Shown: piece after piece, positions 42,604 through 63,134 of the stretch
Layout: each line of letters starts with the position of its first letter
How positions within the stretch are numbered: position 1 is the stretch's first letter
DNA from: Patescibacteria group bacterium
GTDB taxonomy: Bacteria; Patescibacteriota; Minisyncoccia; RBG-13-40-8-A
Length of the DNA: 64,000 bases
Direction: 5' to 3'
Assembly: GCA_043807255.1 (NCBI GenBank)
Contig: JAZDGD010000004.1
Location: 14,057-78,056, forward strand
Notes under the pieces: generated by a model
What the model was told of the DNA's origin: nothing
What the model saw: the letters and a program-made list of their open reading frames with translations, nothing else
Database searches by the model: none
Made by a program: the position numbers and the translations under genes

Positions 42604-42626
42604 TTGTAATAATTAACAATAAAAAC

Positions 42627-42890: not shown

Positions 42891-42936
42891 AATAGAATAT
42901 AAAAAAAGAGGCAAAGGCCTCTTTTTTTATGCTCAT

Positions 42937-43002
42937 AATCTTACGAGGTTTAACCTCGTAAGATTTCCTCTCCGATTTTATAAACATCTCCCGCGCTTTG
43001 GA
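42937..43002 (+). repeat. left 66-bp direct repeat, a degenerate duplicate of the murC 3' end plus the palindromic element (attL-like)
   Basis: aatcttacgaggtttaacctcgtaagatttcctctccgattttataaacatctcccgcgctttgga compared with 43926-43991 (about 8 mismatches); the reverse frame encodes QSAGDVYKIGEEILRG*, as does the murC C-terminus. Confidence 0.8.
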
Positions 43003-43003
43003 A

Positions 43004-43032
43004 AATATAAAAATCTGCATACGTTGACAGAT
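43004..43032 (+). promoter_or_regulatory. perfect consensus promoter TTGACA-17-TATAAT driving the inserted gene
   Basis: ttgacagattttttgtttaggcgtataat. Confidence 0.65.
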
Positions 43033-43196
43033 TTTTTGTTTAGGCGTATAATGTAATAAGATTAAATTGTTCTCTAAACAGATAAATAGATTCTACCTGC
43101 AAATATCCAATATGGCGAACCCACGCCTTTGGCGGGGCCACGCCGTATTGGTTCCGTGCCAGACATTTTTGTCTGAGCAAAGAGGAGGAACTGTCC

Positions 43197-43868: not shown

Positions 43869-43925
43869 AATTTTTCGCCCCATACAGATTCGTCTGTGTG
43901 GGGCATCTTTATTTTTTTCATCATA

Positions 43926-43991
43926 AATCTTACGAGGTTTAGCCTCGTAAGATTTCTTCTCCGATTTTGTAAACATCTCCAGCGCCTTGGA
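43926..43991 (+). repeat. right 66-bp direct repeat (the functional murC 3' end; attR-like)
   Basis: see the left repeat. Confidence 0.8.
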
Positions 43992-45240: not shown

Positions 45241-45351
45241 GTTTAAATCTTATCATTTTAAATTAATAAAACAAAATTATTGACAACAATACAATTACTT
45301 GTTATCTTGTAACCAGAACCTTTAAGGTTACTTTTTGTAAGGAGGATGATT

Positions 45352-45585
45352 GTGAAATACAATTCACTAAAGGCAACGAGGGCGGTGACTGGGGTAGAAC
45401 TCGATTTTATTGGGCATGCTCAGGGCCTTCTTCCGATTTTACAGCAAGAGCTTGTTGAAATCAACGAACAAATTAAAAAATTAGGGAGAAGAGCAGGGAT
45501 CAAAAGACTTCTTCGAAGTCTTGCCATTGATGAACTAATCAAGGATCTCAAGGGGGCCATTAAACGGCACGGAGGGAAGGTCTGA
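45352..45585 (+). CDS. small hypothetical protein (about 77 aa), GC-elevated, strong SD, GTG start
   Basis: gtaaggaggatgattGTG; promoter TTGACA-17-TATCTT at 45289-45317; terminator ggacgggggccaaccctcgtccg plus T-run. Confidence 0.4.
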   Translation: MKYNSLKATRAVTGVELDFIGHAQGLLPILQQELVEINEQIKKLGRRAGIKRLLRSLAIDELIKDLKGAIKRHGGKV

Positions 45586-45685
45586 CGTGGAATACGAAAC
45601 GGACGGGGGCCAACCCTCGTCCGTATTTTTTTATTCTAAAATTGACTTGTTTCTCTTTTTGTACGGCCGCGTAAAAAGAGAAATA

Positions 45686-47023
45686 CTATTTCTTTACGTA
45701 TTTTACGAATTGATCACTGCGGTCGTATTCATTTTTGAAAACACCAAACGATGCTGCGCCGGGAGACAATAAAATAATGTCTCCTTTTTTTGTAAATTTT
45801 CTCGCTTCTTTAATCGCTAATTGCATTGAGTCAACGACAATATATTCGGGAAAATCTTTAGGCAAAACGCTTAAAATCTTATCAGTCGCTGTGCCTTTTA
45901 TGAATACAACATTTTTAGTTGTGTTTGTTGTGACTTCTAACATGTCGTTGAAGTTTAATTCTTTATTTGCCCCTCCACAAATTAAAACAATATTTTTCTT
46001 GTTTTTATATAAAGAATTTAGTGCGGCAATACAGGCGTCAGGAGTTGTGGCATTAGAATCGTTATAATAAGTAATTCCGTTCTTCTTTAAAATCATTTGT
46101 AATCGTCCAGGTTCGCCAGGATAGGTAGCAATTGCTTGTTTGATTTGTTTTTGATTTAATTTCATTAATTTTAAAACTTCAACAGCTAAGGCAATGTTTG
46201 TCTTGTTGTGTTCGCCAATTAATTTTGTTTTGAAATTTCTAATTGTATCTTCATTAACAACAATAATCTTGGGATTTATCCCGCCTTGGCGGGACCTCTT
46301 TTTTATTTGCACCATCGCTTGTTCACTGATAATTAAAAAATCATTTTCTGTTTGGTATTTAAAAATTTCCGCCTTGTCATCAAAATATCTTTGCATATCA
46401 TTTTTATAATAATTCATATGATCATTCATAAAGGTTGTGAAAACAGCAATGTGTGGACTGATTTTTGATTCACCAAAACCTTGTAATTGCCAAGAGTCGA
46501 GCTCCAAGACAACGACATCGTTATCCTTAACTTTTTCCAGCAAAGGAAGCGTGGCAAGTCCACGAATATTTCCACCCAAAAATACATTTCCTTTTTTATA
46601 ATATTTTTTTAAACCATGATAAATCATTTTTGTGACCGTTGATTTTCCGCGCGTGCCAGTGATGCCAATAATTTTAGCTTTAGTAAATTTGGTAAACAGA
46701 GAAGCATCCATTTCAATGGGAATGCTGTTTTTTCTTGCTTCTGCCAGATAAATAGAATCAAAGGGAACTCCTGCGGCTTTAATCAATGTGTCGGCCTGTT
46801 GAAAATCTTCAATGCGATGCTGGCCTAAAATATATTTTATGTTTTTAAATTTTTTGAGTTGTTTTAGAGAAGAAGCAAGTTGTTGTTCGGTTTTTAAATC
46901 AGTAATTAAAAGATTGGCATCGTGTTTGGCCAAAAATTTCGCAACATTAATTCCTCGGCCAAGTAGCCCAAGTCCCATGATGATGATTTTTTTGTTTTTG
47001 AAATATTCTTTGTAATTAAGCAT
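45686..47023 (-). CDS. murD: UDP-N-acetylmuramoylalanine--D-glutamate ligase; the start is probably ATG 47023 (MLNYKEYF...), because the MENLLQG prefix in the ORF track lies in the shared leader repeat
   Basis: IIIMGLGLLGRG, GITGTRGKSTVT P-loop, Mur ligase domains. Confidence 0.85.
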   Translation of the reverse strand: MLNYKEYFKNKKIIIMGLGLLGRGINVAKFLAKHDANLLITDLKTEQQLASSLKQLKKFKNIKYILGQHRIEDFQQADTLIKAAGVPFDSIYLAEARKNSIPIEMDASLFTKFTKAKIIGITGTRGKSTVTKMIYHGLKKYYKKGNVFLGGNIRGLATLPLLEKVKDNDVVVLELDSWQLQGFGESKISPHIAVFTTFMNDHMNYYKNDMQRYFDDKAEIFKYQTENDFLIISEQAMVQIKKRSRQGGINPKIIVVNEDTIRNFKTKLIGEHNKTNIALAVEVLKLMKLNQKQIKQAIATYPGEPGRLQMILKKNGITYYNDSNATTPDACIAALNSLYKNKKNIVLICGGANKELNFNDMLEVTTNTTKNVVFIKGTATDKILSVLPKDFPEYIVVDSMQLAIKEARKFTKKGDIILLSPGAASFGVFKNEYDRSDQFVKYVKK

Positions 47024-47096
47024 ACCCTGTAGTAGATTTTCCACTTATTTTTATTTTACTGCTCCGCAGTAGTGGAAAATTCACTACGGGGCATAT
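47021..47096 (-). repeat. leader element copy 2 (see 128-203)
   Basis: the reverse complement matches the lysS leader over about 76 bp. Confidence 0.85.
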
Positions 47097-47220
47097 TTAA
47101 TTCTATCATTATAATATTTTTTAGACAAAATCCCGATGTAGGGTCGGGATAAAAAAAAGAGGGGAGACGCAACAACGATTGTTCGTTGTTTTGTCTCCCC
47201 ACGCTCCGGCCGTTCGTTAT

Positions 47221-47469
47221 CTACTTGGCCAGTTGTTCGATGGCTTTGACGATATTGAGTCCGATACTAAAGATAAGCGTGATGATGGCCAGAAAAGAGC
47301 TAAAAAGTTGCCTGGAAAGATGCCCTTCGTTCCTGTTTTCCGCTGCGCCAATTACCACCAAAATAAAACTGATGACGACAGCCACGAGCATACTAGTAAA
47401 CATTTTATCCTCCAACGTACGAGATAGTGGGTCGATTCGCATCAACACCACGCTAACATATGTAATCAT
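47221..47469 (-). CDS. small membrane protein (82 aa), GC-elevated, apparently leaderless
   Basis: two TM helices; the minus-strand promoter TTGACA-16-TATGAT ends 5 nt before the ATG; terminator ggggagac...gtctcccc plus T-run at 47170-47215; overlapping plus-strand ORFs are judged artefacts. Confidence 0.4.
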   Translation of the reverse strand: MITYVSVVLMRIDPLSRTLEDKMFTSMLVAVVISFILVVIGAAENRNEGHLSRQLFSSFLAIITLIFSIGLNIVKAIEQLAK

Positions 47470-47512
47470 AGCATATACACAAAATTTGTCAAGTTTTTTC
47501 GGGTAAAATAAA

Positions 47513-47550
47513 AATACTGTAAATTGAACGATCGTTCAAAATACAGTATT
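47513..47550. promoter_or_regulatory. 38-bp near-perfect palindrome aatactgtaaattgaacgatcgttcaaaatacagtatt (operator-like); a related copy is at 56545-56580
   Basis: ATACTGTA-N6-ACGATCGT-N6-TACAGTAT architecture at both loci, each next to a strong promoter. Confidence 0.5.
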
Positions 47551-47601
47551 TTAGAAATTATTAATTTTATTCAATGTTTTTATTTTACAAAAAAATTAAT
47601 A

Positions 47602-48534
47602 ATGTATAGTATAAATTATATGTTAAAAGTGTTTTTGGATGCGTTGATTGATAGCGCGAAAATGATTCCGTTGCTTTTTGTGATTTATGTTGCGATTGAA
47701 TTGATTGAATATAAATTTGGAAACAAAATCAGAGAAAAAATGCAGAGCGCAGGAAAATCCGGTCCAGCGATTGGTTCAATTGTTGGTAGTTTTCCGCAGT
47801 GCGGTTTTTCAGTTATTGCTACTGCGCTATATAACCAGAGATTGGTTACAATTGGAACGTTGTTAGCGGTTTATCTCTCAACATCTGACGAAGCAATTCC
47901 TGTGATTTTGTCGCAACCAGAAAAAGCGAAAATGATTTTGCCATTAATTTTAATAAAAATTGTGATCGCTTTAATTGCCGGATATTTTGTTGATTTTATT
48001 TTTAAAAAAAACAAAAACAATGTTTTAACCCATATTGAAAACTATAAACACGGAACAGACGACAAAACCCATCACCATGAATCAGTAATTGAAGAAAAAT
48101 CTTGTTGTGGACATATGCCCAATTCTGTTTCTAAAAAATTTAATCCCAAAGAAATATTTTTTCATCCCTTAATCCATACATTAAAAATTTTCCTTTTTAT
48201 ATTTTGTGCTTCACTTTTAATCGGCATTTTTATTTTTTTGATAGGTGAAGAAACATTTTATAAATTCTTTTCGAATCAAAAATTTTTACAGCCATTTTTA
48301 GCAGCGATAATCGGATTAATTCCTAATTGTGCATCGTCAGTTTTGATTGCACAACTATATTTAAAAGACGTGATTACTTTCGGCTCAATGATTGCTGGGC
48401 TCTGTGCGGGTGGGGGATTGGGAATATTAATTTTATTTAAGGAAGAAAAAAACAAAAGAAATGCATTTAAAGTTTTGGCGTTGCTTTTGGGCATCAGTAT
48501 TTTTGTTGGTTTGACAATTCAATATGTGCTATAA
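47602..48534 (+). CDS. polytopic membrane protein with a central His/Cys-rich loop (HGTDDKTHHHESVIEEKSCCGH), possibly a metal transporter
   Basis: hydrophobic helices in two halves separated by the His-rich loop. Confidence 0.45.
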   Translation: MYSINYMLKVFLDALIDSAKMIPLLFVIYVAIELIEYKFGNKIREKMQSAGKSGPAIGSIVGSFPQCGFSVIATALYNQRLVTIGTLLAVYLSTSDEAIPVILSQPEKAKMILPLILIKIVIALIAGYFVDFIFKKNKNNVLTHIENYKHGTDDKTHHHESVIEEKSCCGHMPNSVSKKFNPKEIFFHPLIHTLKIFLFIFCASLLIGIFIFLIGEETFYKFFSNQKFLQPFLAAIIGLIPNCASSVLIAQLYLKDVITFGSMIAGLCAGGGLGILILFKEEKNKRNAFKVLALLLGISIFVGLTIQYVL

Positions 48535-48582
48535 TTTGTTTTGGAGGGGCTAATTAAATAATTTTATCCGCCTTGGGCGGAA

Positions 48583-49266
48583 ATGTTCAAAAAAAATATG
48601 ATCGAAATTTTATTGAGTTCGTTGAAAGAGGTTTGGGGGAGTTTTATTGGATTTCTTCCAACCCTTATCGCGGCGTTGATTGTTTTTATTGTTGGTTGGT
48701 TAATTGCCATTTTCGTTGGCAAATTAATCAATAAATTAGTAAAAGCAATAAAGTTAGATTCGCTTTTAGAAAAAATTGGTTTTGGAAAGGCATTGTCAAA
48801 AACAAAAATTAAATTAGATTCAGCCAAGTTTTTTGAAGAACTTGTAAAATGGTTTTTGATTATTGTGTTTTTGATGACCGCAGTTGATATTTTAGGACTT
48901 GAAGAATTAAGGTTCTTTTTGGGGAAAATTCTTGCTTTTATTCCCGTGGTAATAATTTCTGCGGTTGTTTTGTTGGTGACGGTTCTTATTGCAAGATTTA
49001 TGCACAAGATTATTAAGGCAAGCGCTGATGCCGCAGGATTGCATTCGTCTTCAGTAATTGCAGGAATTGCAAGATGGGCAATTTTGATTTTTGGTTTCGT
49101 GATTGCTTTAACGCAGTTAAGAATTACTACGAAGTTAATTGAAACAATTGTTTCTTGGATCATTATAATGTTGGCAATTGCCGGTGGATTGGCATTCGGT
49201 TTGGGTGGCAAGAATATGGCAGAAAAAACTCTTGAAAAACTGAAAGACGATTTAACGGAAAAATAA
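48583..49266 (+). CDS. TM-helix-repeat / MscS-related small membrane protein
   Basis: repeated amphipathic TM segments; the minus-strand ORF 48564-49211 is judged an artefact. Confidence 0.4.
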   Translation: MFKKNMIEILLSSLKEVWGSFIGFLPTLIAALIVFIVGWLIAIFVGKLINKLVKAIKLDSLLEKIGFGKALSKTKIKLDSAKFFEELVKWFLIIVFLMTAVDILGLEELRFFLGKILAFIPVVIISAVVLLVTVLIARFMHKIIKASADAAGLHSSSVIAGIARWAILIFGFVIALTQLRITTKLIETIVSWIIIMLAIAGGLAFGLGGKNMAEKTLEKLKDDLTEK

Positions 49267-49450
49267 CCCTTCGACCTGCCTGCCGGTAGGCAGGTAAAAA
49301 TTCAGGGTAAATAAAAATTCGGAGGTGGAACCTCCGAATATGGAGTAGATATCAAGGGGCCAGAAACATCCGTTTCTGGCCCCTTTGATTGGTCGCAAAG
49401 ACAGAGATACCCGAGGTCAGACCTCGGGTATTTTCTATTATCGGAAACGA

Positions 49451-49479
49451 TTGACACGACTATTTTACGAGAATATAAT
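49451..49479 (+). promoter_or_regulatory. perfect consensus promoter TTGACA-17-TATAAT
   Basis: ttgacacgactattttacgagaatataat; the ATG lies 8 nt downstream (leaderless). Confidence 0.55.
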
Positions 49480-49487
49480 TTGTCTAT

Positions 49488-49658
49488 ATGCGAGAAACAA
49501 AATGCGATTTATGCAAAAAGAAAATTTCTGAAGAACCGATAATCGCTGGTTTGGGATTTTTTCCAAAAGCCGAATTGTGCGAAAAGTGTGGTGCACCAAT
49601 TTTGAATTTTTTAAAGAAACATAAATTCATAAAAACCGAAAAGAAAAAGAAAAGATAA
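49488..49658 (+). CDS. small zinc-ribbon-like protein (56 aa; CDLC...CEKC), leaderless
   Basis: MRETKCDLCKK...ELCEKCGAPI; not in the ORF track because it is under 60 aa. Confidence 0.35.
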   Translation: MRETKCDLCKKKISEEPIIAGLGFFPKAELCEKCGAPILNFLKKHKFIKTEKKKKR

Positions 49659-49891
49659 CATAAAATAAATTAAAGGGCTTGACCCCTCACATGAAAACAA
49701 TATACTCAACCACTTGACACGCTATTTTTTTTCGCATAAACTAACAACATATAAGAACTATGAGAAAAAACCAAAAACAACTTATGAAAACAAGCGGTTG
49801 ATAAAACCTGGTATTTTCATACCTCGTATTACTCAGACCGCCAAAAGCGGTTTTTTTAAATCATAGAATCGGAAGACCTTAACAACCCCTA

Positions 49892-49987
49892 AATCTCGCA
49901 AGGCGAGATCGGGAGCCCGACCGAAAGGTGTAGGGCTCCCCAAGTATCGCAAAGCGAGATCGGGAGCCCGACCGAAAGGTGTAGGGC
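49892..49987 (+). repeat. tandem direct repeat (2 x about 45 bp) in the 23S leader, each unit with two hairpins
   Basis: atctcgcaaggcgagatcgggagcccgaccgaaaggtgtagggct appears twice. Confidence 0.8.
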
Positions 49988-50636
49988 TGAATATGTTTCG
50001 ACATCAAGTAAAAAAAACAATAAAAGAAAAAGCATTTTTTATCGAGTAAAAAAGGTTAAAAATAAAAGCAATTAAAGTCTAAGTAGTAATGTCTATAAAT
50101 TGCCAGCTAAATTAAGCAGGTTAGTAAGGGTATATGGTGGATGCCTTGACACTAGAAGGCGAAGAAGGACGTGGCGTAACTGCGATAAGTCTCGGGGAGG
50201 TGTGTAGCAACCTATGATCCGGGAATCTCCGAATGAGGAAACTCAATTCCAATAAACTGGAATTATCCCGATTGAAATCGGGAAGCGAACTCGGCGAAGT
50301 AAAACATTTCAGTAGCCGAAGGAATAGAAAACAAAAGTAATTCCCCAAGTAGTGGCGAGCGAAAAGGGAACAGCCCAAACCCGATCCTAGAACCGCTTTG
50401 CGGTTCGGATTTAGGGGGTAGTAAGATAATAACGTCGAGAGAAATCTCGGGAAAGTGGATACAAAACTAAGACTTCCTTAGTTGAAGGAACTGGAAAGTT
50501 CTACCAAAGAAGGTAATAGTCCTGTAAACGAAAAGCCTATTATACTACTATTATTGAATATTGAGTACCGCGATAACATATAATCTAGCGGGAATCATCC
50601 TGAACTATCTAGGAAAGGCTAAATACTTCTAGTGAT

Positions 50637-52824: not shown

Positions 52825-52872
52825 ACTCCTATCTGTCGTGGGCGTAGATACTTGAGAGACTTTGTCCCTAGT

Positions 52873-53637
52873 AAGAATATTGCTACTGTCCGAAGTAATT
52901 CGGACTGACAATGTGGCTTATAACGGTGAAGTCTTAATGATGTTTGGTCTGTTGATAACTATTATTGCATCGGTCCGATGATAATGGTACAATTTAATTG
53001 AGGACCAGATAATTATTAAGATAATACCGTGGGAAGTCGATCTAAAATTAATTACGCATATATTGCAGGATTTCTTGATGGTGATGGAAGTTTAATGTTT
53101 CAAATTAAAAAACGGAAAGATGGTAAGTCTAAAACAAGATTTATGCTGACAATCTGTTTTTATCAAGATTCGAGACACGCTAAGCCATTGTTCTGGATTC
53201 AAAAGGTTCTGAAAATAGGTTATATTTCAAAACGTAAAGATGGAATTACAGAATTAAGAATAAATGGTTATAAGCAAGTCAAAAATATTTTGAAAAATTT
53301 AATTCCATTCATCAAATTCAAGAAAATTCAAGCAAAAGCAATGTATGACGCCACAAATCTTTTATGTGCTGTGAAAAATATAAATTTGTCTAAAAGCAAT
53401 TTATATAAGTTAATTAATTATATTTTGACAATTCAAAATAATAATTATGCGACTAAACACAAAAAAACTAAAAAAGATTTGTTGAAAATTTTAGGTTTGA
53501 CCCCGTAACGACTTGGTTTGACTTCGGTCAGCCAGAGTTTAACAGCAATGTTAAGCTAACATGCCACCACCCTAATTCCGATATTATTGGAATGGGTGAA
53601 GATATAGTCTGCGCACATAGTGATATGTGATAACGTG
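52873..53637 (+). mobile_element. self-splicing (probably group I) intron in 23S carrying a homing-endonuclease ORF; the insertion lies within the sarcin-ricin loop sequence context
   Basis: exon 1 ends in U, the intron ends in G; flanking exon sequence reconstitutes CCUAGUACGAGAGGACC. Confidence 0.65.
53029..53508 (+). CDS. LAGLIDADG homing endonuclease (single-motif, homodimer type)
   Basis: YIAGFLDGDGSLMFQIKK motif; located inside the 23S intron. Confidence 0.8.
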   Translation: MGSRSKINYAYIAGFLDGDGSLMFQIKKRKDGKSKTRFMLTICFYQDSRHAKPLFWIQKVLKIGYISKRKDGITELRINGYKQVKNILKNLIPFIKFKKIQAKAMYDATNLLCAVKNINLSKSNLYKLINYILTIQNNNYATKHKKTKKDLLKILGLTP

Positions 53638-53949
53638 ACGAGAGGACCGGGATGAACAAACCTCTGGTGTACCAGCTGTCCTGCCAAGGGCACTGCTGGG
53701 TAGCTAAGTTTGGCAGGGATAAACGCTGAAAGCATATAAGCGTGAAACCCTTCTCGAGATTAGGTATCATAGATTGGTTGAAGATTACGACCTTGATAGG
53801 CTTCAGGTGTAAGTACCGAGAGGTATTGAGCCGAGAAGTACTAATAAATCATTTGCCTGTTTAATTAGGCTGGCAATTTGTGGACGTTATTTAGATTTAT
53901 TTATTTTAGTTGATATCGAAAAATTGTGATTCAAAATTATAACCATTAT

Positions 53950-54056
53950 AAGGGAGCTATACCTGGAGTGCTCCACCTGTTCCCATTCCGAACACAGAAG
54001 TGAAATCTTTCAGGGCCGATGATAGCGGATTACCGCAAAAGTAGGTGACCCTCCTA
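53950..54056 (+). rRNA. rrf: 5S rRNA
   Basis: CCACCTGTTCCCATTCCGAACACAGAAGT...GCCGATGATAGCGG; terminator gctccgcaactgcgggg plus T-run at 54081-54117. Confidence 0.8.
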
Positions 54057-54139
54057 TAATAATCACAATTAGCAAATAAGATGAAAGCTCCGCAACTGCG
54101 GGGTTTTTGTTTTTTTAAAAATTTGTTATACTATAATCA

Positions 54140-54937
54140 ATGAGTCATTATTCTAAAAAACAACTTAAAATCGGAATTGTGTATTTAGTAATCATTGCGA
54201 TTATTGTTGTTGGAATTTATTTTATTAATCGACCGACTGGACCAACTTGTTCTGATGGAATCAAAAATCAAAACGAAGAAGATATTGATTGTGGTGGATT
54301 GTGTGGACAATGCCAAAAAATTGACGATTTGCAAATTATTTTAGAAAAATTTATTTCCACAACAAACAGTAATTATGATTTGATTGTGAAAATTAAAAAT
54401 CCCAATATTGTTTGGGCAGTAGAATCAGCAGATTATCAAATTAATTTATACGATGCAAGCGACCAATTGATTGGCACCAAAACCAATAGAACCTATATTT
54501 TACCGCAAGAAACAAAATATATCGTTGAGCAAAAGTTTTTTTCAGAAAAACAAGTTGCCAAAATCGAAACCAAATTATCAAATATTATTTGGAAAAAATT
54601 ATCAGAGTTCAGCGATTTAGACATTAGAAACAGAAAAACAGAATATCAGATACTAGAAAACGGTTTTAGTTTGTTGGTAGGTTCGATTGAAAATAAAACC
54701 AGTTACGATTTAGATAAGATTGAAGTTGTGGGCGTTTTGTTTAATGGTCAAAATGAGATTATTGCGGTTGGCAAAACTTTAATGAATACGTTCTTAAGAA
54801 ATGAAAGCAGGGGATTTGAGATGATTTGGCCATATATTATTTCTGAAGAGGTAAAATCGTTTGATGTTAGACCATATACGAATATTTTCCTTGATGAAAA
54901 TTTTATCAAAACACAAGACGGTCAGAGCACATATTAA
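54140..54937 (+). CDS. membrane-anchored hypothetical protein (265 aa) upstream of ftsW
   Basis: N-terminal TM helix; extracytoplasmic domain with a CGGLCGQC motif. Confidence 0.45.
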   Translation: MSHYSKKQLKIGIVYLVIIAIIVVGIYFINRPTGPTCSDGIKNQNEEDIDCGGLCGQCQKIDDLQIILEKFISTTNSNYDLIVKIKNPNIVWAVESADYQINLYDASDQLIGTKTNRTYILPQETKYIVEQKFFSEKQVAKIETKLSNIIWKKLSEFSDLDIRNRKTEYQILENGFSLLVGSIENKTSYDLDKIEVVGVLFNGQNEIIAVGKTLMNTFLRNESRGFEMIWPYIISEEVKSFDVRPYTNIFLDENFIKTQDGQSTY

Positions 54938-54943
54938 ATTAAT

Positions 54944-56029
54944 ATGTTTTTATATTTCTTGAAAAAACTTGACTGGGTGCTGATTATATCGGTTTTGCTT
55001 TTGGCAACCATTGGATTGATGTCGATCTATAGTACCTCTTTCTATCACGAGAAAAGTTATTTTTATAAACAGGCCGGATTTATAATTCTTGGTCTTTTTT
55101 TAATGTTGATTCTTGCGTTCATTGATTATCGACTTTTTAGAAACCATCCCACATTACTTCTGATTTTTTATTTTATTAGCGTTTTTCTCCTGGTTGCGGT
55201 TTTATTTGTGGGCAAATCTAGGGGGGCCGCAAGTTGGTTTAGTTTGGGATTTATTAACATTGAACCAGTTGAAATTGCAAAACTTGTAATGATCTTAATT
55301 TTTGCGCAATATTTTTCTCTCCGACACATTGAATTGTATCGTTTGCGACACATTATTATTTCTGGAATCTATACCGCCCTAGTTGTGGGACTCATTTTTC
55401 TTCAACCGGACATGGGTTCAGCAATGGTGCTGATTTTTCTTTGGTTGGGAGTTATGGTAATTGCAGGAATTAAATTGAGACAGCTTTTGCTTTTGTTTTT
55501 AATTGGAGTTATTTTGCTTGGCGTTGCCTGGGTTGGAGTTTTAAGGCCATATCAAAAAGATAGAATTACTAGTTTTGTTAATCCCTACTTAGACCCACAA
55601 GGAAGTGGTTACCATCGCATTCAATCAATGATTGCAATTGGTTCGGGACAATTTTGGGGCAGAGGGCTTGGACACGGGCCACAATCACAATTGAATTTCT
55701 TGCCCGAACAACATACGGATTTTATTTTTGCATCTATCGGCGAAGAATGGGGATTTGTTGGCTTGATAATTGTTTTTATATTGTATCTTCTGTTGTTTTT
55801 TAGAATTATTAAAATTGCGATTAGGGCTGACAATAATTTTGCAAGATTGTTTTGTGTTGGCACGGCAATTGTTTTAGCTTTTCAGACATTTGTGAATATT
55901 GGTATGAATCTGGGAATTTTGCCAATCACAGGAATTCCTTTGCCATTTGTTTCTTATGGTGGAAGTAATTTATTGATTAATTTTGTAGCGCTGGGGATTA
56001 TTCAAAGTATTGCGATACGAGAAAAATAA
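54944..56029 (+). CDS. ftsW: SEDS-family peptidoglycan glycosyltransferase (FtsW/RodA)
   Basis: 10-TM SEDS architecture; conserved ...PDMGSAMV... and GGSN...motifs. Confidence 0.85.
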   Translation: MFLYFLKKLDWVLIISVLLLATIGLMSIYSTSFYHEKSYFYKQAGFIILGLFLMLILAFIDYRLFRNHPTLLLIFYFISVFLLVAVLFVGKSRGAASWFSLGFINIEPVEIAKLVMILIFAQYFSLRHIELYRLRHIIISGIYTALVVGLIFLQPDMGSAMVLIFLWLGVMVIAGIKLRQLLLLFLIGVILLGVAWVGVLRPYQKDRITSFVNPYLDPQGSGYHRIQSMIAIGSGQFWGRGLGHGPQSQLNFLPEQHTDFIFASIGEEWGFVGLIIVFILYLLLFFRIIKIAIRADNNFARLFCVGTAIVLAFQTFVNIGMNLGILPITGIPLPFVSYGGSNLLINFVALGIIQSIAIREK

Positions 56030-56115
56030 AATTTGCGCATAAACAAAAACCCCCCGAACCGATAGGTTATAGGGGGTATTTTTGTTTTTAAATCGTATAC
56101 AATTTAAAATGAGTG

Positions 56116-56379
56116 TTAGGAAAGGTGTTTTGAAACAAGTTTCGTCATTTCAAACATATCTACGGTTCCTTTTCCCTTGAAAACAGCTTTCAAGTTTGCA
56201 TCAGCAATAATGTTGCGTTTTGCCTTTGGATCTTGAAGATTGTTCTTCTTCATATATATCCAAAGCTTTTTAACAACTTCTGATCTTGGCAATGGACCCT
56301 TTCCGACGACCAATGCAAGTTCTTCGCTCACTTTTAATGGTTTCATGAAGGCTGCATTTGGTTTTCTTTTTGTCGCCAT
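56116..56379 (-). CDS. SWIB/MDM2-domain protein (87 aa from MATKRKP)
   Basis: ...PLKVSEELALVVGKGPLPRSEVVKKLWIYMKKNNLQDPKAKRNIIADANLKAVF... is a typical SWIB fold sequence. Confidence 0.65.
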   Translation of the reverse strand: MATKRKPNAAFMKPLKVSEELALVVGKGPLPRSEVVKKLWIYMKKNNLQDPKAKRNIIADANLKAVFKGKGTVDMFEMTKLVSKHLS

Positions 56380-56678
56380 AAAAATTGTTTTACTTATGCT
56401 TATTAAAAGACCTTTATGTACATAGTATAGCATAGATAAATAAATTGCAAAAGTTTATTTATCATGTCGACACGTTTTAGGCAAGGACATTTTGCCTGAC
56501 GAGAGGACAGTCTTTTAAGGGGCTTCGGCCCCTTTTTTATTCTTATACTGTATTTTGTACGATCGTTTTATTTACAGTATAAATTATTAATTTGTTTGAC
56601 TTTTTGTCTAGTCTTGCTACAATCTAACCAAGGAGGCACATAGCTCCTTAAATCTAAATAAAAAAAAGGAAGGAAGAG

Positions 56679-57071
56679 ATGTTTAAAGATTTGACGGAAG
56701 TGTTGAGCAAGCTAAATCAACTGGTCAAAAAGATCAAAGAAGACGCCATTGTTCAGGTCAAATTTGGCCCAACAATCATATTTGATCTAAACGAAAAATA
56801 CTACGTCAGTGTAAGCATTGAATTTCGAGGGATATCGGATTTTAGCATGAACCATCTTGTAGAAATGGCACAGTTCTATAAGGTCACAAGCACCACGGAT
56901 TGGGCGATATCGATTGATGGATCTGTGAGCATTTCGCTTTCAAGTGTTGTCACTGTTAGAGAAAATTATTTACGACTCTATATTTCGCGTACCAAGTATA
57001 TGGATTTTCTGAAGAAACACAATAAGTCGGATGTCGTGGCGACTTACACGGATGCGGAGCTTAGAATGTAG
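56679..57071 (+). CDS. hypothetical protein (130 aa) with its own promoter TTGACT-16-TGCTACAAT
   Basis: promoter at 56595-56624; SD ggaaggaagag; GC-elevated. Confidence 0.45.
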   Translation: MFKDLTEVLSKLNQLVKKIKEDAIVQVKFGPTIIFDLNEKYYVSVSIEFRGISDFSMNHLVEMAQFYKVTSTTDWAISIDGSVSISLSSVVTVRENYLRLYISRTKYMDFLKKHNKSDVVATYTDAELRM

Positions 57072-57192
57072 AACCCAAGCACTCTTTGTCCAAATGATCT
57101 CGGGCCCCCCGTGGGTCCCGTTTTTTATTTGGTATTGACTTTTTCCAAGGGACGTGCTATACTTACAACATAGTTCAAATAAGGAGGATGCG

Positions 57193-57342
57193 ATGAATAT
57201 CAAGTCATTGCTGGTCGGAGTCGTGTTGGTGGTGTTGAGTAAGTGGTTCGGCGGATTCTTTTTCGTCGCCGGTATCGCTCTCATCCTTTCCTCGGCGGGA
57301 AAGACAAGGTTCACCAGGAACAGTTCTTTGTCAAATTTCTGA
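57193..57342 (+). CDS. small membrane peptide (49 aa, one TM helix)
   Basis: promoter TTGACT-17-TATACT (ggacgtgctatact); SD aaggagga; hydrophobic core LLVGVVLVVL...FFFVAGIALIL. Confidence 0.45.
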   Translation: MNIKSLLVGVVLVVLSKWFGGFFFVAGIALILSSAGKTRFTRNSSLSNF

Positions 57343-57449
57343 AACCCAGAAACTTCGGCACATCATGGGGCTCGCTTCGCGAGCCTCTCTTTTTATTTTG
57401 AATTGACATTTCACCCCTTTTTGCTACAATCTAATCAGAGGAGAGAGAC

Positions 57450-57620
57450 ATGAAAAACTTGAACTTTGGCAAGTCGAACAAGCAAATCGGCAAAAGGAGG
57501 AACGTTCAGCCCAAGCCAACGGCAAAACAAGTCAAAAGAGCCAGAAGGCAAAAAGCCATTAAGGCAAAAGAAGTCAGATTCGGGAAGAGCAAAGACTATA
57601 GTTATTTGTTTGAATTTTAA
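57450..57620 (+). CDS. small highly basic peptide (56 aa, Lys/Arg-rich)
   Basis: promoter TTGACA-16-TGCTACAAT at 57404-57433; SD gaggagagaga; not in the ORF track because it is under 60 aa. Confidence 0.4.
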   Translation: MKNLNFGKSNKQIGKRRNVQPKPTAKQVKRARRQKAIKAKEVRFGKSKDYSYLFEF

Positions 57621-57634
57621 ACAAGGAGGAGAAG

Positions 57635-57880
57635 ATGAAAACTGGTGTTGCGTTTTTGTTTCGCGGTGAACGAGAAGAAACCGAGAAGGCGAAAAAACTC
57701 TTAGATGAGGCAAAAATTCCATACGAGGAAAAAGAACAAGGACCCGAAGACGGAGGACCGATACTCCATGTTCTTTGTAGGACAAGAGAATACTACGGGT
57801 TGGAGGAAATAGAAACCCTCATCCGCGGGTGGAAAGAATTCCAATCCGTTTCTACTCCCGATAACATGTACAACGAATAA
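57635..57880 (+). CDS. hypothetical protein (81 aa, acidic)
   Basis: SD acaaggaggagaag; terminator gggggcttcggcccc plus T-run at 57882-57905. Confidence 0.45.
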   Translation: MKTGVAFLFRGEREETEKAKKLLDEAKIPYEEKEQGPEDGGPILHVLCRTREYYGLEEIETLIRGWKEFQSVSTPDNMYNE

Positions 57881-57951
57881 CGGGGGCTTCGGCCCCTTTT
57901 TTATTTTTTTGGGTTGACCCCGCTGTTTTAAATTTATATAATAAAAGAGAG

Positions 57952-58512
57952 ATGAACGAACAAAATAAAACAATTTATATATTTATAGATGCATCAAATG
58001 TTTGGAATGCGGTTAAGTCGGTTAAAAAGTTTATTGAATACAAAACTCTTAAAGATTATTTTAGGAAAAATTTTAATGCAGACAAGGTTGAAATTTTTTA
58101 TTACGATGCCTATCCAAAAGCCGGAACAAGAGATTATGACTTGGATGGAAAGCATAAATTTTTTACTTATCTTAAGAAGGGGCTTGGTTTTACTGTGAGA
58201 AAAAAAGAGTTAAAAAGAATTTCCGTTATTGGCGAGAGTGGAGAATCTATCATAGAAAAAGGAAATATGGATGTGGAAATAACAATTGACGCGATGCATA
58301 ACATTGATAAATATAATATAGCCGTCTTTTTTAGCGGGGATGCTGATTTTCTTGCATTGGTGAATTATTTAAAAAATATTAGTAAAAAGGTCTATATTTT
58401 TTCGTCAAAAGATAATATTTCTCACGAACTAAAAACTGGCGGAGATGGTTATTTTGATTTAAAAGATATACATGAATTTTGGGGTAAAGATTTAAAACAT
58501 CGCACAAAATAA
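57952..58512 (+). CDS. NYN-domain (LabA-like, PIN-related) putative ribonuclease
   Basis: IFIDASNV...GNMDVEITIDAMH...FSGDADFLALV signature acidic residues. Confidence 0.65.
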   Translation: MNEQNKTIYIFIDASNVWNAVKSVKKFIEYKTLKDYFRKNFNADKVEIFYYDAYPKAGTRDYDLDGKHKFFTYLKKGLGFTVRKKELKRISVIGESGESIIEKGNMDVEITIDAMHNIDKYNIAVFFSGDADFLALVNYLKNISKKVYIFSSKDNISHELKTGGDGYFDLKDIHEFWGKDLKHRTK

Positions 58513-58664
58513 CAATATATAAACGAAAGTCACCCTCAATTAAGAGGGTGACCCTACGATGTATAACCCTAACGGTTCTATGGATAGAACCGAAAGACAT
58601 TATTAGTATAGATAAATTAATTAGGTAAGTCAATAGCGAGTTATCCACAGACAAAACAAATCTT

Positions 58665-58970
58665 ATGCGATACAATAAACTTGTCCGAGATAAAATACCG
58701 GAAATAATAAGAGGGAAGGGCGAGACGCTGATTACGCATATTGCTGACGATCAGGAATACGAGATTAAGCTAAAAGAAAAACTTCAAGAAGAAGTTGGGG
58801 AATTTTTAAAAGACAGTAATGCCGAAGAGTTGGCTGATATTTTAGAGGTTATTTATGCGCTTGGCGATAATATTGGAGTTGCCAAAGAAGAACTAGAAAA
58901 AATCCGTGCAGAAAAAGCTGAAAAACGTGGGGGATTTAAAGAAAAAATAATTTTAGATGAAACGAAATAA
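58665..58970 (+). CDS. MazG-like / PRA-PH-like all-alpha nucleoside-triphosphate pyrophosphohydrolase
   Basis: KLVRDKIPEII...EEVGEFL...EELADILEVIYAL...KRGGF pattern. Confidence 0.6.
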   Translation: MRYNKLVRDKIPEIIRGKGETLITHIADDQEYEIKLKEKLQEEVGEFLKDSNAEELADILEVIYALGDNIGVAKEELEKIRAEKAEKRGGFKEKIILDETK

Positions 58971-58972
58971 AT

Positions 58973-59578
58973 ATGAACTATAAAGACATAGAAGAATTAA
59001 TTCCGTTTTTATTTAAGATTCGAGAATTGCATCAAGTCTACAGGGCGACCCCTGAATTGGATGGAAGATTCGAAAATGACGCAGAACATACTTGGTCGGT
59101 CGCAATGACCGTTGCTTTGGCGTTGCCATACCTGGAGAAAGAATTAAATATAAAAATAGATCGGGAGAAAATTTTTATTATGTCTTTAATCCATGATTTG
59201 GCTGAAATTAAAACGGGGGACACAAAAACATGGGACGCAACCGCACGCATCAATAAAGAAGAGAAAGAAAGAGACGCAATGACAGAATTATTTAATTTAT
59301 TGCCCAACGAACATGCGGAAAAATTTAAGGCACTTTGGGAGGAATGTGAAAAACAAGAAACTCTCGAGGCCAAAATAGTTAAATCAATTGACCGCATGGA
59401 TCCCGTTATTCACAGAACCTCGACTAAATTGGGTTGGCACGATGTTGAAGATGGACACAATACAATCGATGCTCTAAATCAAAGACAATTACCAAGGCAT
59501 AATTTTTCCAAAAGTTTAACCGATTTATTTAAAAAAATAAGAGATATAGCAGAAAACGATAATTTATTTAAAAAATAA
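58973..59578 (+). CDS. HD-domain phosphohydrolase (YfbR-like 5'-deoxynucleotidase family)
   Basis: ENDAEHTWSVAM...LIHDLAEIKTGD; starts 3 nt after the MazG-like stop. Confidence 0.7.
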   Translation: MNYKDIEELIPFLFKIRELHQVYRATPELDGRFENDAEHTWSVAMTVALALPYLEKELNIKIDREKIFIMSLIHDLAEIKTGDTKTWDATARINKEEKERDAMTELFNLLPNEHAEKFKALWEECEKQETLEAKIVKSIDRMDPVIHRTSTKLGWHDVEDGHNTIDALNQRQLPRHNFSKSLTDLFKKIRDIAENDNLFKK

Positions 59579-59579
59579 C

Positions 59580-59840
59580 GTGCCACAAATAATATTTAAA
59601 ATTCAGAAAGCGGGGGAGAGAGGAAGATCTCCGATCGAAATAATTGTTAAAAATAATAATAAATCCTACAGTCAGATTACGGCGGAGACCGATAAATTGT
59701 TATTAACACTTGACAAGGTTTTAAAATCTGCTAAACTTAAAATAGAATTAGTTAAGGATATCAAAGTTATAAGTCATAAAGAAGCCGGGCTCACATCACA
59801 AAGAATTGTGAGAGCCATCAAACAAGCACTTGACTTCTAA
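59580..59840 (+). CDS. hypothetical protein (86 aa, GTG start overlapping the previous stop)
   Basis: ORF only. Confidence 0.35.
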   Translation: MPQIIFKIQKAGERGRSPIEIIVKNNNKSYSQITAETDKLLLTLDKVLKSAKLKIELVKDIKVISHKEAGLTSQRIVRAIKQALDF

Positions 59841-59939
59841 ATTTAATTAAATTAGTATAGAAAAAGCTGGAAAAGCCCTATTTTAGGGTCAGTTTCTATA
59901 TTTTAATATATTTTTAATCGGGTAAAAGCCTCCGTTATC

Positions 59940-62900
59940 ATGATTAAATATTTTTCGAACTATCCCAAAAAACAATATCCTCTTCCAAACTTAGTTGAGA
60001 TACAGCTCAACAGTTACAAATTATTTTTTGAAAAGGGGTTAAGAGAACTTTCTGATGAAATGTCTCCTATCGTCGATTACGGCGGTAAGGACCTTTCTTT
60101 GTATTTCAAAGAGTATTATTTAGATGAACCTAAGTGTGATGAACTCAAAGCGAAGAAGAATGGCTTATCATACGAAGCGCCACTTAAGGTTAAATTAAAA
60201 TTAGTCAACAAAAAAGCGAACGAGACAAAGGAACAGGAGATTTTTCTTACTGATATTCCTTTGATGACTCCCCGCGGAACATTTATTGTCAACGGAGTGG
60301 AAAGAGTAGTTATTTCCCAGTTGATTAGATCCGCGGGTGTTTTTTTTAAGACAGCATATATTAAGGGTAGAAAAGTTCATGGCGCAAAAATTATTCCAAA
60401 CAGAGGCGCTTGGTTAGAATTTGACACCGAAGCAAACAATACAATTGTTGTGAGAATTGACCGAAAAAGAAAAATTCCCGCAACCTCATTGTTAAGAATT
60501 TTTGGTTTAGAAACCGATGAACAAATTTTAAAAGAATTCAAAGATGCTGATAATGACCCAGAAATACAATTTATAAAAGAAACCTTGGACAAGGACCCAG
60601 CAAAAACGCCAGACGAGGCTTGGATCGAAATTTATAAAAGAATTAGACCAGGCGATTTAGCCGCAATTGATAATGCCAGACAATTGATTGAAAATATGTT
60701 TAAGAATTTTGAAAGATATGATTTGTCAGAGGTTGGAAGATATAAATTAAATCATCGAATGGGACTTAAAACCCCATTAGACCCAGAACATAGAATTTTG
60801 AGAAAAGAAGATATCGTTGCAACCCTGAAAGAAATTATTAAATTAAACAATAGTCCTGATATGGTTGGCGATGACATTGATCACTTAGGAAATAGGCGCG
60901 TAAGATCATTGGGCGAGCTTTTACAAAACAAATTTAGAGTAGGAATGGCGAGAACAATTAGGATTGTTAGAGACAGAATGAGTACGATGGATGCTTATAA
61001 TTTAGCTCCAGCACAACTTTTGAATGCGCGACCATTAATGGCAGCAGTCAAAGAATTTTTTACCTCATCGCAATTATCCCAATTTATGGACCAAGACAAT
61101 CCCTTGTCGGAACTGGAACACAAAAGAAGATTGTCAGCAATGGGTCCGGGCGGTTTAACTAAAGAAAGAGCTGGTTTTGAGGTTCGTGACGTGCATCCAT
61201 CTCACTATGGAAGAATTTGTCCAATTGAAACACCGGAAGGCCCAAACATTGGTTTGGTTGGCCATTTAGCAAGTTATGCCAAAATTAATGACTATGGATT
61301 TATTGAAACTCCATATAGAAAGGTTAAAGACGGAAAACTTACTAATGAAATTATTTATATGGATGCTTCGGAAGAAGAGAAATATAACATTGCTCATGCT
61401 GGAGTACACATTGAAGCCGATGGAAAGATTGGCGAAAAAAGGGTTGAAGCAAGAATTCATGGTGAACCAGGAATTGTTGACAGAAACGATGTTGATTATA
61501 TGGACGTTTCTCCTTATCAATGTATTTCTATTGCCACCGCTTTAATTCCATTTGTTGAGCATGATGATTCTAATCGTGCACTTATGGGTTCGAACATGCA
61601 GAAGCAGGCAGTGCCATTAGTTAATCCGCAAGCACCGCTTGTGGGAACTGGGATTGAAAGAAAGGCAGCCATGGATTCAGGACAAGTTATGTTGGCACCA
61701 AATGATGGGGTAATTAAAGAAGTTGATGCATCACATATTGTTATTTCTTCAAAAGGTACAATTAAAAATTATCCTTTAAATAATTATCTTCGTTCCAATG
61801 AATATACCTGTATTCATCAAAGACCAATAGTAAAACAGGGCCAGAAAATTAAAATGGGAGATGTTATTGCTGATAGTACTTCAACTCAAGGAGGAGAATT
61901 GGCATTGGGACAAAATTTATTGGTTGCGTTCTTGTCTTGGTCAGGAGCAAATTTTGAAGATGCAATTGTGCTTTCGGAAAAATTAGTTAAAGATGATAGG
62001 TTTAGTTCGATACACATTGAAGAACATGATTGCGATGTTCGTGATACAAAATTAGGACCAGAAATTACAACCCCCGATATTCCTAACGTTGGAGAAGATC
62101 GACTAAAAGATTTAGACGAAGAAGGAATTGTGAGAATTGGTGCAGAAGTTGGTCCAGACGATATTTTGGTAGGAAAAATATCACCAAAAGGTGAGACCGA
62201 TTTAACTGCAGAAGAAAGATTGTTAAGGGCTATTTTTGGCGATAAGGCCAGAGACATTAAAGATACATCATTGAGATTATCTCATGGAAAGCGTGGAAGA
62301 GTTGTGGGAGTTAAAATCTTTTCAAGAGACAAAGGAGATAAATTACAAACTGGCGTGATCAAATCAGTTAGAGTTGAAATTGCTCAATTTAGAAAGGTCT
62401 CCATTGGCGACAAGCTTGCTGGAAGACATGGAAACAAAGGCGTTATTTCAAAAGTATTACCAGAACAAGATATGCCATACTTAGAAGACGGTACACCAGT
62501 TGAAATTGTTTTAAATCCATTGGGCGTTGCTTCTCGTATGAATTTGGGACAGATTTTAGAAACTCATTTAGGATGGGCGGCAAAAAAATTAGGATACAGA
62601 ACATATAGCCCGCCATTTTCAGGCGTTACAGAAGAAGAAATTAAGGCAGAACTTAAAAAAGCAGGACTTCCAGAAAGCGGGAAGGTTACATTATATGACG
62701 GAAGAACTGGCGAACCATTTATCAATAAAGTTACAGTTGGTCAGATTTATATGTTGAAATTAAATCATTTAGTTGAAGACAAAATTCATATGCGTTCAAT
62801 TGGGCCATACTCATTGATTACACAGCAACCACTTGGTGGAAAAGCACAATTTGGAGGTCAGAGATTTGGAGAAATGGAGGTCTGGGCACTCGAAGGTTAT

Positions 62901-63134
62901 GGAGCTGCTCATACATTGCAAGAAATGTTAACCATAAAATCTGATGACGTTATCGGCCGTGCCAATGCTTACGATTCCATTATTAAAGGCAGACCAATAC
63001 AAAATCCACACTTACCATCATCGTTTAATGTTTTATTAAGTGAAATTAGATCGCTTGGATTTGCGATTAATACGGTGAACGAAGTTGATACAACAAAAAT
63101 CGATAATAAAAAAATTAAAAAATCCCGACCATAG
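59940..63134 (+). CDS. rpoB: DNA-directed RNA polymerase subunit beta (compact, 1064 aa)
   Basis: conserved rifampicin-cluster region, ...GRHGNKGV..., NADFDGDQM-equivalent blocks. Confidence 0.9.

Follow-up and report, generated by a model that had tools for sequence, protein, structure and literature searches.

An accessory islet of small insulated gene cassettes between core genes of a Patescibacteria genome, probably reshuffled at shared promoter, leader and terminator modules

The genomes of Patescibacteria are tiny, and accounts of these bacteria usually centre on what they lack. What is the nature of a run of four small genes of elevated guanine plus cytosine (GC) content that lies between core genes of such a genome? 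The question is raised by a 64-kb stretch of a Patescibacteria (Parcubacteria-like) metagenome-assembled genome. The whole analysed stretch is called the window here, and all coordinates are positions in it. Upstream of the island lie the 23S ribosomal RNA (rRNA) gene, a LAGLIDADG open reading frame (ORF), the 5S gene, an ORF of 265 amino acids (aa), rodA/ftsW, and SWIB on the minus strand. Downstream lie NYN, a MazG-like gene, an HD phosphohydrolase, an 86-aa ORF (p86), and rpoB. The island is probably a hypervariable accessory islet of insulated, moron-like cassettes, which are reshuffled at shared promoter, leader and terminator modules; the statement covers both its architecture and a model of its evolution. 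Phage morons are single small genes that possess a promoter and a terminator of their own, differ in GC from their neighbours, and lie between conserved genes (PMC3594210). Each cassette follows one plan. A near-consensus sigma-70 promoter with an extended -10 is followed by a short leader and a purine tract of the GGAG type; a small ORFan ORF comes next, and an intrinsic terminator closes the cassette. The features of the island are the following; promoters P1 to P3 and the terminators of the three units come from a consensus scan.

56463-56544, plus strand: stem-loops and an intrinsic terminator (56517-56540), specific to the window, fold z = -3.2
56545-56593: 36-bp palindrome ATACTGTA-N6-ACGATCGT-N6-TACAGTAT, plus a AAATTATTAATTT tail common to both copies
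56596-56623, plus strand: promoter P1, TTGACT-N16-TACAAT (which equals TTGAC-N15-GCTACAAT) with a TG-extended -10; the module is kept in relatives
56630-56678, plus strand: leader of p130, with an inverted repeat (56630-56649), an A-rich spacer, and the purine tract GGAAGGAAGAG
56679-57071, plus strand: p130, cytosolic alpha/beta ORFan of 130 aa (NCBI V1686_01060)
57102-57127, plus strand: intrinsic terminator of the p130 unit
57135-57163, plus strand: promoter P2, TTGACT-17-TATACT with TG
57193-57342, plus strand: p49, hydrophobic peptide of 49 aa, Shine-Dalgarno (SD) tract AAGGAGG
57367-57397, plus strand: intrinsic terminator of the p49 unit
57403-57430, plus strand: promoter P3, TTGACA-16-TACAAT with TG, matching the consensus at 11 of 12 positions
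57450-57620, plus strand: p56, very basic peptide of 56 aa (NCBI V1686_01065)
57635-57880, plus strand: p81, acidic protein of 81 aa, predicted to be co-transcribed with p56
57882-57910, plus strand: intrinsic terminator of the p56-p81 operon

The four ORFs lie exactly where an earlier note on this DNA had placed them. The scan for promoter and terminator consensus predicts three transcription units for the four. The strong promoters that had been reported before the first three genes were found as near-consensus promoters with an extended -10, 1-3 nucleotides (nt) from the positions first given. It had also been suggested that each gene has a promoter of its own. This holds for p130, p49, and p56 and fails for p81; p56 and p81 are separated by 14 nt with no terminator in the gap, and so form one bicistronic unit. 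A total of 18 promoter-like sites were identified in the region, where 9.3 +/- 3.3 are expected, and eight terminator-like sites, where 2.4 +/- 1.4 are expected. Each of the best four promoter-like sites on the plus strand is found directly 3' of a terminator and 5' of an ORF; the fourth, at 57914, is that of the native NYN gene downstream. Judging by the consensus matches, the units would each be transcribed strongly and independently of their neighbours. The claim that all four genes carry an AGGAGG-type SD stands in part. GGAG-type tracts are present before all of them, but the perfect AGGAGG of p130 (56631-56636) sits 43 nt before the ATG, as an arm of the inverted repeat of the leader, and the tract close to the start is GGAAGGAAGAG.

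The surroundings of the island were explored through relatives. A metagenome collection was scanned with the pattern TTGAC-N15-GCTACAATYYAAYCA-N0-3-GGAG, which is of the P1-leader type, and five loci were identified. All of them are in the same chromosomal neighbourhood (rodA, SWIB, MazG-like, p86, and rpoB) and contain different cassettes. The rodA and SWIB genes are approximately 92% identical in DNA between relatives whose gene content differs. The gene orders are given below, with P for a promoter, T for a terminator, and (-) for the minus strand.

Window: rodA, SWIB(-), remnant terminator, palindrome, P-130-T, P-49-T, P-56-81-T, NYN, MazG-like, HD, p86, rpoB
L001/L090: rodA, 197-aa GC-rich ORF, SWIB(-), P-54-78-T, P-130, P-136-T
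L091+L094: 133-aa ORF, SWIB(-), 105-aa ORF, 45-aa basic peptide, 86-aa p81 homologue, T, P-131-T, MazG-like, 125-aa ORF, p86-like, rpoB
L093: 265-like ORF, rodA, P-131-T, P-(new ORF)
L092: P-79-T, P-121, p86-like

These sequences mark the site as a hot spot, with the core genes rodA/SWIB on one side and MazG-like/p86/rpoB on the other. The gap between rodA and SWIB, which is 86 bp in the window, appears to be a second insertion slot of the hot spot, because relatives carry extra GC-elevated ORFs there: a 197-aa ORFan in L001 (144-1000) and a 133-aa member of the p130 family in L091 (1417-1818).

The modules that precede the genes are kept while the genes change. The promoter-leader module TTGAC-N15-GCTACAAT-CTAAYCA-AGGAGGC-loop-GCTCCTTAA is found before unrelated cargo, and that of p130 recurs before other ORFs of L001. 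In an alignment of seven leaders, GCTACAAT..AAYCA..GGAGGC-(4-5 nt)-GCTCCTTAA is invariant. The module made of a terminator and P2 (57098-57173) recurs in L093 at 3585-3660, before a different ORF. Reuse of promoter modules extends beyond the GCTACAAT type, because two successive cassettes with unrelated ORFs in L095 (130-745) repeat another module, TTGACA-ATTTTTATTAARGGYGTARGATAAAGAAAAATCA.

The points at which homology is lost and regained lie in the same kind of sequence. Homology of the window to L001 and L091 stops at 56459-56462, within the spacer of the basic-peptide promoter of L001, and homology to L001 resumes exactly at the -10 box of P3 (57420). With these breakpoints, a 960-bp block of the window falls inside a single promoter of L001. 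The -35 element and spacer of P3 resemble the promoter of the 131-aa cassette of L094 (88% identity, a 41-nt blastn segment), and from the -10 box onward P3 resembles the basic-peptide promoter of L001. By these alignments P3 reads as a chimera of the two promoters. Breakpoints at the -10 box fit homologous exchange. We infer that cassettes are reshuffled because the modules persist while the cargo changes and the breakpoints lie at the -10 box. Cassettes would be duplicated, lost, and re-paired with new cargo through homologous recombination at the repeated promoter-leader and terminator modules, and recombination would also take place between the flanking core genes. The cargo would be drawn from a clade-restricted gene pool that has a higher GC content at third codon positions (GC3) and SD-like tracts. 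The locus could then be viewed as a compact, actively reshuffled platform of insulated orphan genes beside core genes, and promoter modules before unrelated cargo suggest how a minimal genome could retain and trade accessory functions by simple means.

Known variable loci share some of these properties. Flexible genomic islets likewise have conserved core flanks, variable content among close relatives, and atypical composition, whereas the island is very small (~1.4 kb), every unit is insulated, and the promoter modules are the apparent recombination substrates. In the rAID-1 orphan-immunity arrays of Bacteroidales, the genes are small, diverge fast, and have skewed GC, and the sequences between them are repetitive (10.1101/471110); the island resembles these and integron cassette arrays in its small fast-diverging genes, skewed GC, and repeated intergenic modules. 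It differs from both in that no XerD or integron integrase is nearby (ORFs 53029-63134) and in that its cargo is unlike known immunity families. In addition, its repeats are complete promoter-leader units and simple terminators, unlike the attC-like imperfect palindromes of integron arrays.

The composition of the island is also unlike that of its surroundings. Its GC content in 400-nt windows reaches 0.42-0.47, compared with 0.353 for the window minus rRNA, and it lies above the 95th percentile of the 300-nt windows of the stretch. Most of the excess falls on third codon positions: GC3 is 0.46 in p130, 0.68 in p49, 0.53 in p56, and 0.43 in p81, and it is 0.286 +/- 0.023 with a maximum of 0.33 in 23 long native ORFs. 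The genes are therefore non-native at third positions, which agrees with the earlier observation that GC is higher here than in the flanking housekeeping genes. These values bear on the possibility that the four products are lineage-specific, highly expressed housekeeping proteins, for example ribosome- or nucleoid-associated, whose composition reflects expression level. The strong promoters, the N-terminus of the basic peptide that three relatives have kept, and the location near rpoB and the rRNA operon could be explained in this way. However, high expression fails to explain the GC3 excess, because the ribosomal-protein genes bL32 and bS16 keep native GC3 (0.30-0.33), and they have no SD. 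The presence, order, and partners of the cassettes vary among close relatives, members of the p130 family are only ~25% identical where rodA is 86% identical, and natural strains without p49 and p81 seem to exist. A housekeeping role is thus improbable. The genes are accessory, with atypical GC3 and a content that varies between relatives, rather than conserved core genes of native composition. Elsewhere in the window, the TrmD gene (36079-36954) has a GC3 of 0.43, which is unusually high here, and a ~95-aa N-terminal extension before the Pfam domain.

Homologues of the four proteins are very rare: when 5.8 billion and 1.84 billion proteins were searched, only one to five matches were obtained, restricted to the clade. 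Pfam, PHROGs, NCBIfam, and PADLOC returned only sub-threshold noise for p130, p49, p56, and p81, and ten cargo proteins of relatives have no Pfam match. Nothing relevant was found by Rfam, either on the window at the gathering threshold or on the island in E-value mode. The island genes were absent by tblastn from 80 SWIB-anchored loci on genome contigs, all of which were non-syntenic, SWIB being conserved across phyla.

Small ORFans without homologues, each unit with its own promoter, its own terminator, and a deviant GC content, could also be a decayed prophage or morons left in the chromosome, and such units fit the textbook description of a moron (PMC3594210). A phage-derived module had been proposed for the island and is not supported here. 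The flanks on both sides are housekeeping genes (rodA, SWIB, NYN, MazG-like, HD, and rpoB) and no phage gene is among them. Searches of INPHARED by tblastn, of IMG/VR, and of PHROGs and a fold search of BFVD gave no match. A loose promoter-pattern scan of IMG/VR gave seven matches, all of them fortuitous, within coding regions and lacking a -35 element, and a scan of IMG/VR with the p81 alignment found no relatives. Several relatives have the same hot spot filled, with the core genes on either side intact. A phage remnant is therefore improbable. The likeness to morons of the Hendrix type, which are independent transcription units, lies in the promoter, terminator, GC, and placement; the island differs from them in being outside any phage or prophage, in having no phage homologues, and in forming an array that shares a promoter-leader module at a chromosomal hot spot.

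The most surprising element is the presence of SD tracts in a host without an anti-SD. In the region of its 3' end (41900-42130), the 16S gene closes with ...GGGGAACCTGTGGATGG-ACAATATTTTTA, reading GGATGG-ACAATATTTTTA; it lacks the GGATCACCTCCTT tail, and CCTCC is not found beyond that point. Loss of the anti-SD is documented for a subgroup of Parcubacteria (PMC9297842). Native genes, including rodA, SWIB, rpoB, MazG-like, HD, p86, bL32, bS16, NusB, and KhpA, have A/T-rich upstream sequences and no SD. A GGAGG-type tract precedes 4 of 41 long ORFs and all nine GC-elevated cassette genes of the window (Fisher's exact p = 2.9e-7). These nine are the four island genes, the ORFs at 11675, 32332, 32616, and 43197, and a small membrane gene at 47404-47220. 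At the related loci the tract is present in ~20 of ~20 cassette genes, which include paralogues at ~25% identity, and in none of ~14 native genes. In L082, HicAB and a nucleotidyltransferase are without an SD, and the p81 homologue and the next ORF have AAGGAGG. Many native genes possess TAAAAT(A/T)-like upstream tracts, for which complementarity to the altered 16S tail would be a speculative reading.

The leader of p130 was compared with that of L001. Over the 49 nt from AGGAGG to ATG there are no substitutions and two single-nucleotide indels; the ORF itself has a synonymous divergence (dS) of 0.60. At the pace of third codon positions, which are 28% different, a leader free of substitutions would have an estimated chance of ~1e-7. 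The leader and its purine tract look selected, not relict, because such conservation is improbable. The repeat AAGGAG-N7-8-CTCCTT (N8 in p130) is invariant, with a 5-bp stem and no covariation. It may be read as a 5' RNA hairpin, as an in-cis switch of the SD/anti-SD type, or as a DNA operator just 3' of the -10. A mini-ORF in the leader was considered and rejected, as its frame and start codon are unconserved among leaders.

In Bacillus subtilis and in cryIIIA of Bacillus thuringiensis, mRNA leaders of the 5' stem-loop and STAB-SD types occur. The p130 leader likewise has an AGGAGG near the predicted 5' end, far 5' of the start codon and in a short hairpin. It differs in that the host 16S has no anti-SD, so that binding of the 30S subunit cannot be assumed, and in that the stem is invariant and an operator is equally possible. 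Selected-looking SDs without an anti-SD raise the questions of how this class of genes is translated or regulated and where it comes from. A bolder proposal, which we regard as rather unlikely, is that in anti-SD-less Parcubacteria selection maintains canonical GGAGG tracts in a distinct class of accessory cassettes, that the tracts are read by something other than the 16S tail, and that the promoter-leader is the crossover site of a recombinase-free capture of cassettes. If so, the reader could be an alternative mechanism of initiation or an in-cis SD/anti-SD switch made of AGGAGG, CUCCUU, and the downstream GGAGG. Other candidates would be a trans-acting anti-SD-like RNA and a common repressor that acts on AAGGAG-N7-8-CTCCTT.

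The four products were examined one by one; all structures are predictions from very shallow alignments. The first, p130, has one homologue that is 77% identical, on the European Nucleotide Archive contig L001. The nucleotide identity of the two genes is 82%, and that of the flanks is 92%. Nonsynonymous divergence (dN) is 0.127 and dS is 0.604, which gives a dN/dS of 0.21, and the differences by codon position are 16/18/36. By this comparison p130 is a real coding sequence under purifying selection. It belongs to a paralogous family that diverges fast and is restricted to the clade. Homology among the proteins of the window, L001, and L093 extends from end to end at ~25% identity (E = 1e-7), and their profile matches the L091/P0009 pair with an hhalign probability of 82% (E = 1e-5). 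In L093, rodA is 86% identical yet the member of the p130 family is ~25% identical, which indicates very fast divergence or non-orthologous replacement. P0007 and P0008 have a p130-like leader, a p130-like length, and a weak colinear resemblance. The AlphaFold2 (AF2) model of p130, from an alignment of five sequences, has the order alpha-beta-beta-alpha-beta4-alpha, with a predicted local distance difference test (pLDDT) of 69.6 and a predicted template modelling (pTM) score of 0.65. It has no fold match in PDB or BFVD (TM <= 0.4).

The second product, p49, has an isoelectric point (pI) of 12 and a grand average of hydropathy (GRAVY) of 0.99. It has hydrophobic segments at approximately residues 5-15 and 19-33 and is C-terminally cationic. 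Judged by its hydrophobicity, it would be a membrane-inserting peptide. No homologue was found, and Pfam gave only sub-threshold DUF308 and ATP1G1. The p49 unit is the main candidate for the view that some units are non-coding RNAs with spurious ORFs. Elsewhere in the window there are GC-rich promoter-terminator units that look non-coding and show no codon periodicity. In addition, p130 and p56 carry the consecutive NCBI locus tags V1686_01060 and V1686_01065, both for hypothetical proteins, and because these flanking tags are consecutive, p49 appears to be unannotated in the NCBI record. However, GC by codon position in p49 is 17/20/34 of 49, a periodicity of three with p = 0.0012, an AAGGAGG tract lies 6 nt 5' of its ATG, and the product is coherently hydrophobic. 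The proteins p130, p56, and p81 have homologues at the protein level, and Rfam has no match. Spurious ORFs are thus very unlikely, and all four ORFs were accepted as coding, with p49 the least certain.

A toxin-antitoxin (TA) resemblance had been proposed for the island. On a TA reading, p49 would be a type I membrane toxin and p56 and p81 a toxin and its antidote, the acidic p81 neutralising p56. Like Hok, Fst, and TisB, p49 is shorter than 60 aa and hydrophobic, with a cationic C-terminal tail, and lies behind a strong promoter. Unlike them, it has no antisense RNA gene, no family match, and no detected conserved fold-back elements of its mRNA; there is no minus-strand promoter-like site in 57165-57400, so none is antisense to p49. 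The other half of this reading concerns p56 and p81. The p56 peptide has a pI of 11.2 and a charge of +14.5, and p81, which is co-transcribed with it, has a charge of -6.4; the pair recurs in L091, and a homologue of p81 is found in the neighbourhood of HicAB. The complementarity of charge is only partial, however, and the two are not obligate partners, as those of a type II system would be. In L001 the peptide is accompanied by an unrelated 78-aa ORF, and in L082 the p81 family is found without the peptide. No TA family was matched in Pfam, NCBIfam, or PADLOC, nor in PHROGs. The TA resemblance is unsupported on these grounds, and a TA function is unlikely.

Under the preferred reading, in which p56 and p81 are cargo of a reshuffled cassette, the pair would consist of a basic peptide that probably binds nucleic acids and a binding partner with a thioredoxin fold. 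The N-terminus of p56, MKN(L/V)NFGKSN, is conserved in L001 and L091. The partner of the basic peptide in L001, of 78 aa, is nearly neutral and unrelated to p81; the p56-p81 pairing is kept in L091. Homologues of p81 are found in L091 (86 aa) and L082 (P0005, 70 aa, 46% identity, on an AT-rich unrelated contig), and about four members of the family are known. P0005 (L082, 1-2280) is the only one outside the clade. It has its own TTGACA-17-TATGAT promoter and no basic peptide, and its neighbours, a HicA/HicB pair and a nucleotidyltransferase of the Pol-beta type, make up an accessory context. Two other search matches, P0004 (an ankyrin-repeat protein) and P0006, were rejected as false and inflated by repeats; P0005 alone was real.

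It had been stated that none of the four proteins has a recognisable motif, which is wrong for p81. Five AF2 models of p81 agree (pLDDT 74-77, best 76.7) on the order beta-alpha-beta-beta-beta-alpha. A Foldseek search of PDB gave thioredoxin-fold proteins for nearly all of the top 50 matches, including glutaredoxins, N-terminal domains of glutathione S-transferase (GST), SelW, and the PDI b' domain. Glutaredoxin Grx1 (3msz) was matched with a TMq of 0.60 and GST N-terminal domains with 0.64, both with probability 1.0. At the CxxC site, after beta-1, p81 has GEREE, and no cysteine is conserved across three homologues. Because GEREE replaces CxxC and no cysteine is conserved, the predicted thioredoxin/glutaredoxin-like fold was called redox-dead. 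In predicted fold, p81 resembles glutaredoxin/thioredoxin-fold proteins without a redox motif, such as SH3BGR-like proteins and the PDI b' domain. It differs from glutaredoxin/thioredoxin-fold proteins in having neither CxxC nor CxxS and no match at the sequence level to a solved structure or to Pfam; a search of PDB with the sequence profile gave nothing significant and no Pfam family was matched. From the model, p81 would most plausibly be a binding partner or module rather than an enzyme. The proteins of the island define several new clade-restricted families, including this predicted redox-dead thioredoxin-fold protein.

What the cassettes do for the cell is a guess. A conflict or immunity-type accessory role would fit best, because of the rapid turnover, the foreign composition, and the insulated, constitutive-looking expression; our confidence in it is well below even. 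Several observations weigh against the proposed islet of reshuffled cassettes and its parts. A donor was not found, and a foreign origin is argued from composition and SD use only. No integrase, transposase, or phage gene is present within ~4 kb on either side of the island, and no tyrosine recombinase or integrase is among the ORFs from 53029 to 63134. The relatives are approximately six short contigs, and the rates of turnover and the recombination model are drawn from few genomes. The strength of expression is read from consensus matches. P0007 and P0008 are not significantly related to p130, and the confidence of the p130 model is only moderate at its pLDDT of 69.6.

The sequence directly upstream of P1 was also explored. 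The segment 56463-56544 is probably the 3' remnant of a lost cassette. Its terminator, at 56517, is 96% identical to the one at 57883-57908. Direct-repeat terminators as scars of an insertion were considered and rejected, as the likeness of 56519-56544 and 57883-57908 is limited to the 26-nt hairpin plus the T-run; it may be convergent.

The palindrome (56545-56580) ends 15 nt 5' of the -35 element of P1 (56596). A 36-bp palindrome with a relative near 47.5 kb had been described, and both were confirmed. The second copy is at 47514-47549, or to 47567 with the tail, and the two copies are 92% complementary. The pattern occurs only at these two places in the window, where 0.07 occurrences are expected, and is not present at related loci. 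From its sequence the palindrome is possibly a regulator-binding site. A reading as a LexA or Cheo box was set aside, as GAAC-N4-GTTC is included in the copy at 47.5 kb but the island copy is degenerate there. The copy at 47.5 kb lies between the start of an ArsP_2-like permease gene and a minus-strand gene for a 61-aa protein. This gene (47404-47220) is GC-elevated, encodes a protein with two transmembrane segments, and has a TTGACA-N16-TATGAT promoter, a GGAGGAT tract, and a terminator. The second copy may be a candidate regulatory site common to the island and the genes at 47.5 kb.

A cassette of the same style as the island is present at 11596-12200, with a TTGACA...TGCTATAAT promoter, an AAGGAGA tract, and a terminator. 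It contains a 143-aa ORFan (11675-12106) with a GC3 of 0.53 and no Pfam match.

Three GC-rich promoter-terminator units elsewhere in the window are apparently non-coding and show no codon periodicity. On the minus strand at 14290-14650, a promoter of the form TTGACT-N16-TGCTACAAT precedes a transcript of ~330 nt that is GC-rich, highly structured, and apparently non-coding, and that ends in a strong terminator. Rfam gave no match to this unit, E-value mode included, and codon periodicity is absent; the unit holds GGTAAAGTCCC, which is reminiscent of RNase P RNA. The region 32125-33720 contains a ~110-nt repeat three times (32125-32245, 32868-32985, and 33360-33440). The repeats precede two near-identical promoters (..GACAGGATTTGTGGACGTGCTATAAT, at 32998-33028 and 33460-33488). 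From these promoters, GC-rich and apparently non-coding RNAs, ended by terminators and without an Rfam match, extend over 33030-33320 and 33490-33712. The loop of a predicted hairpin in the latter RNA contains the anti-SD-like CCUCCUUU; this occurs once, and the chance of it is ~0.07.

The rRNA operon of the window (42603-50114) is split, with 16S, tRNA-Ile, and tRNA-Ala 7.5 kb from 23S. The gap contains two Mur-ligase genes, the ArsP_2-like permease, and an MscS-like protein. Directly 3' of tRNA-Ala in the 16S-23S spacer, 66-nt direct repeats (42937-43991; 92% identical, with a hairpin in each) enclose a segment of 989 bp whose GC reaches 0.54. The segment encodes a 223-aa ORF (43197-43868) with a GC3 of 0.53, an AGGAGG SD, and no Pfam match, and it looks like an inserted element. 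The LAGLIDADG endonuclease ORF (53029-53508) lies between 23S and 5S (52868-54057). Just 5' of the 23S gene, a GC-rich 51-nt unit is duplicated in tandem at 49887-49988 (92% identical).

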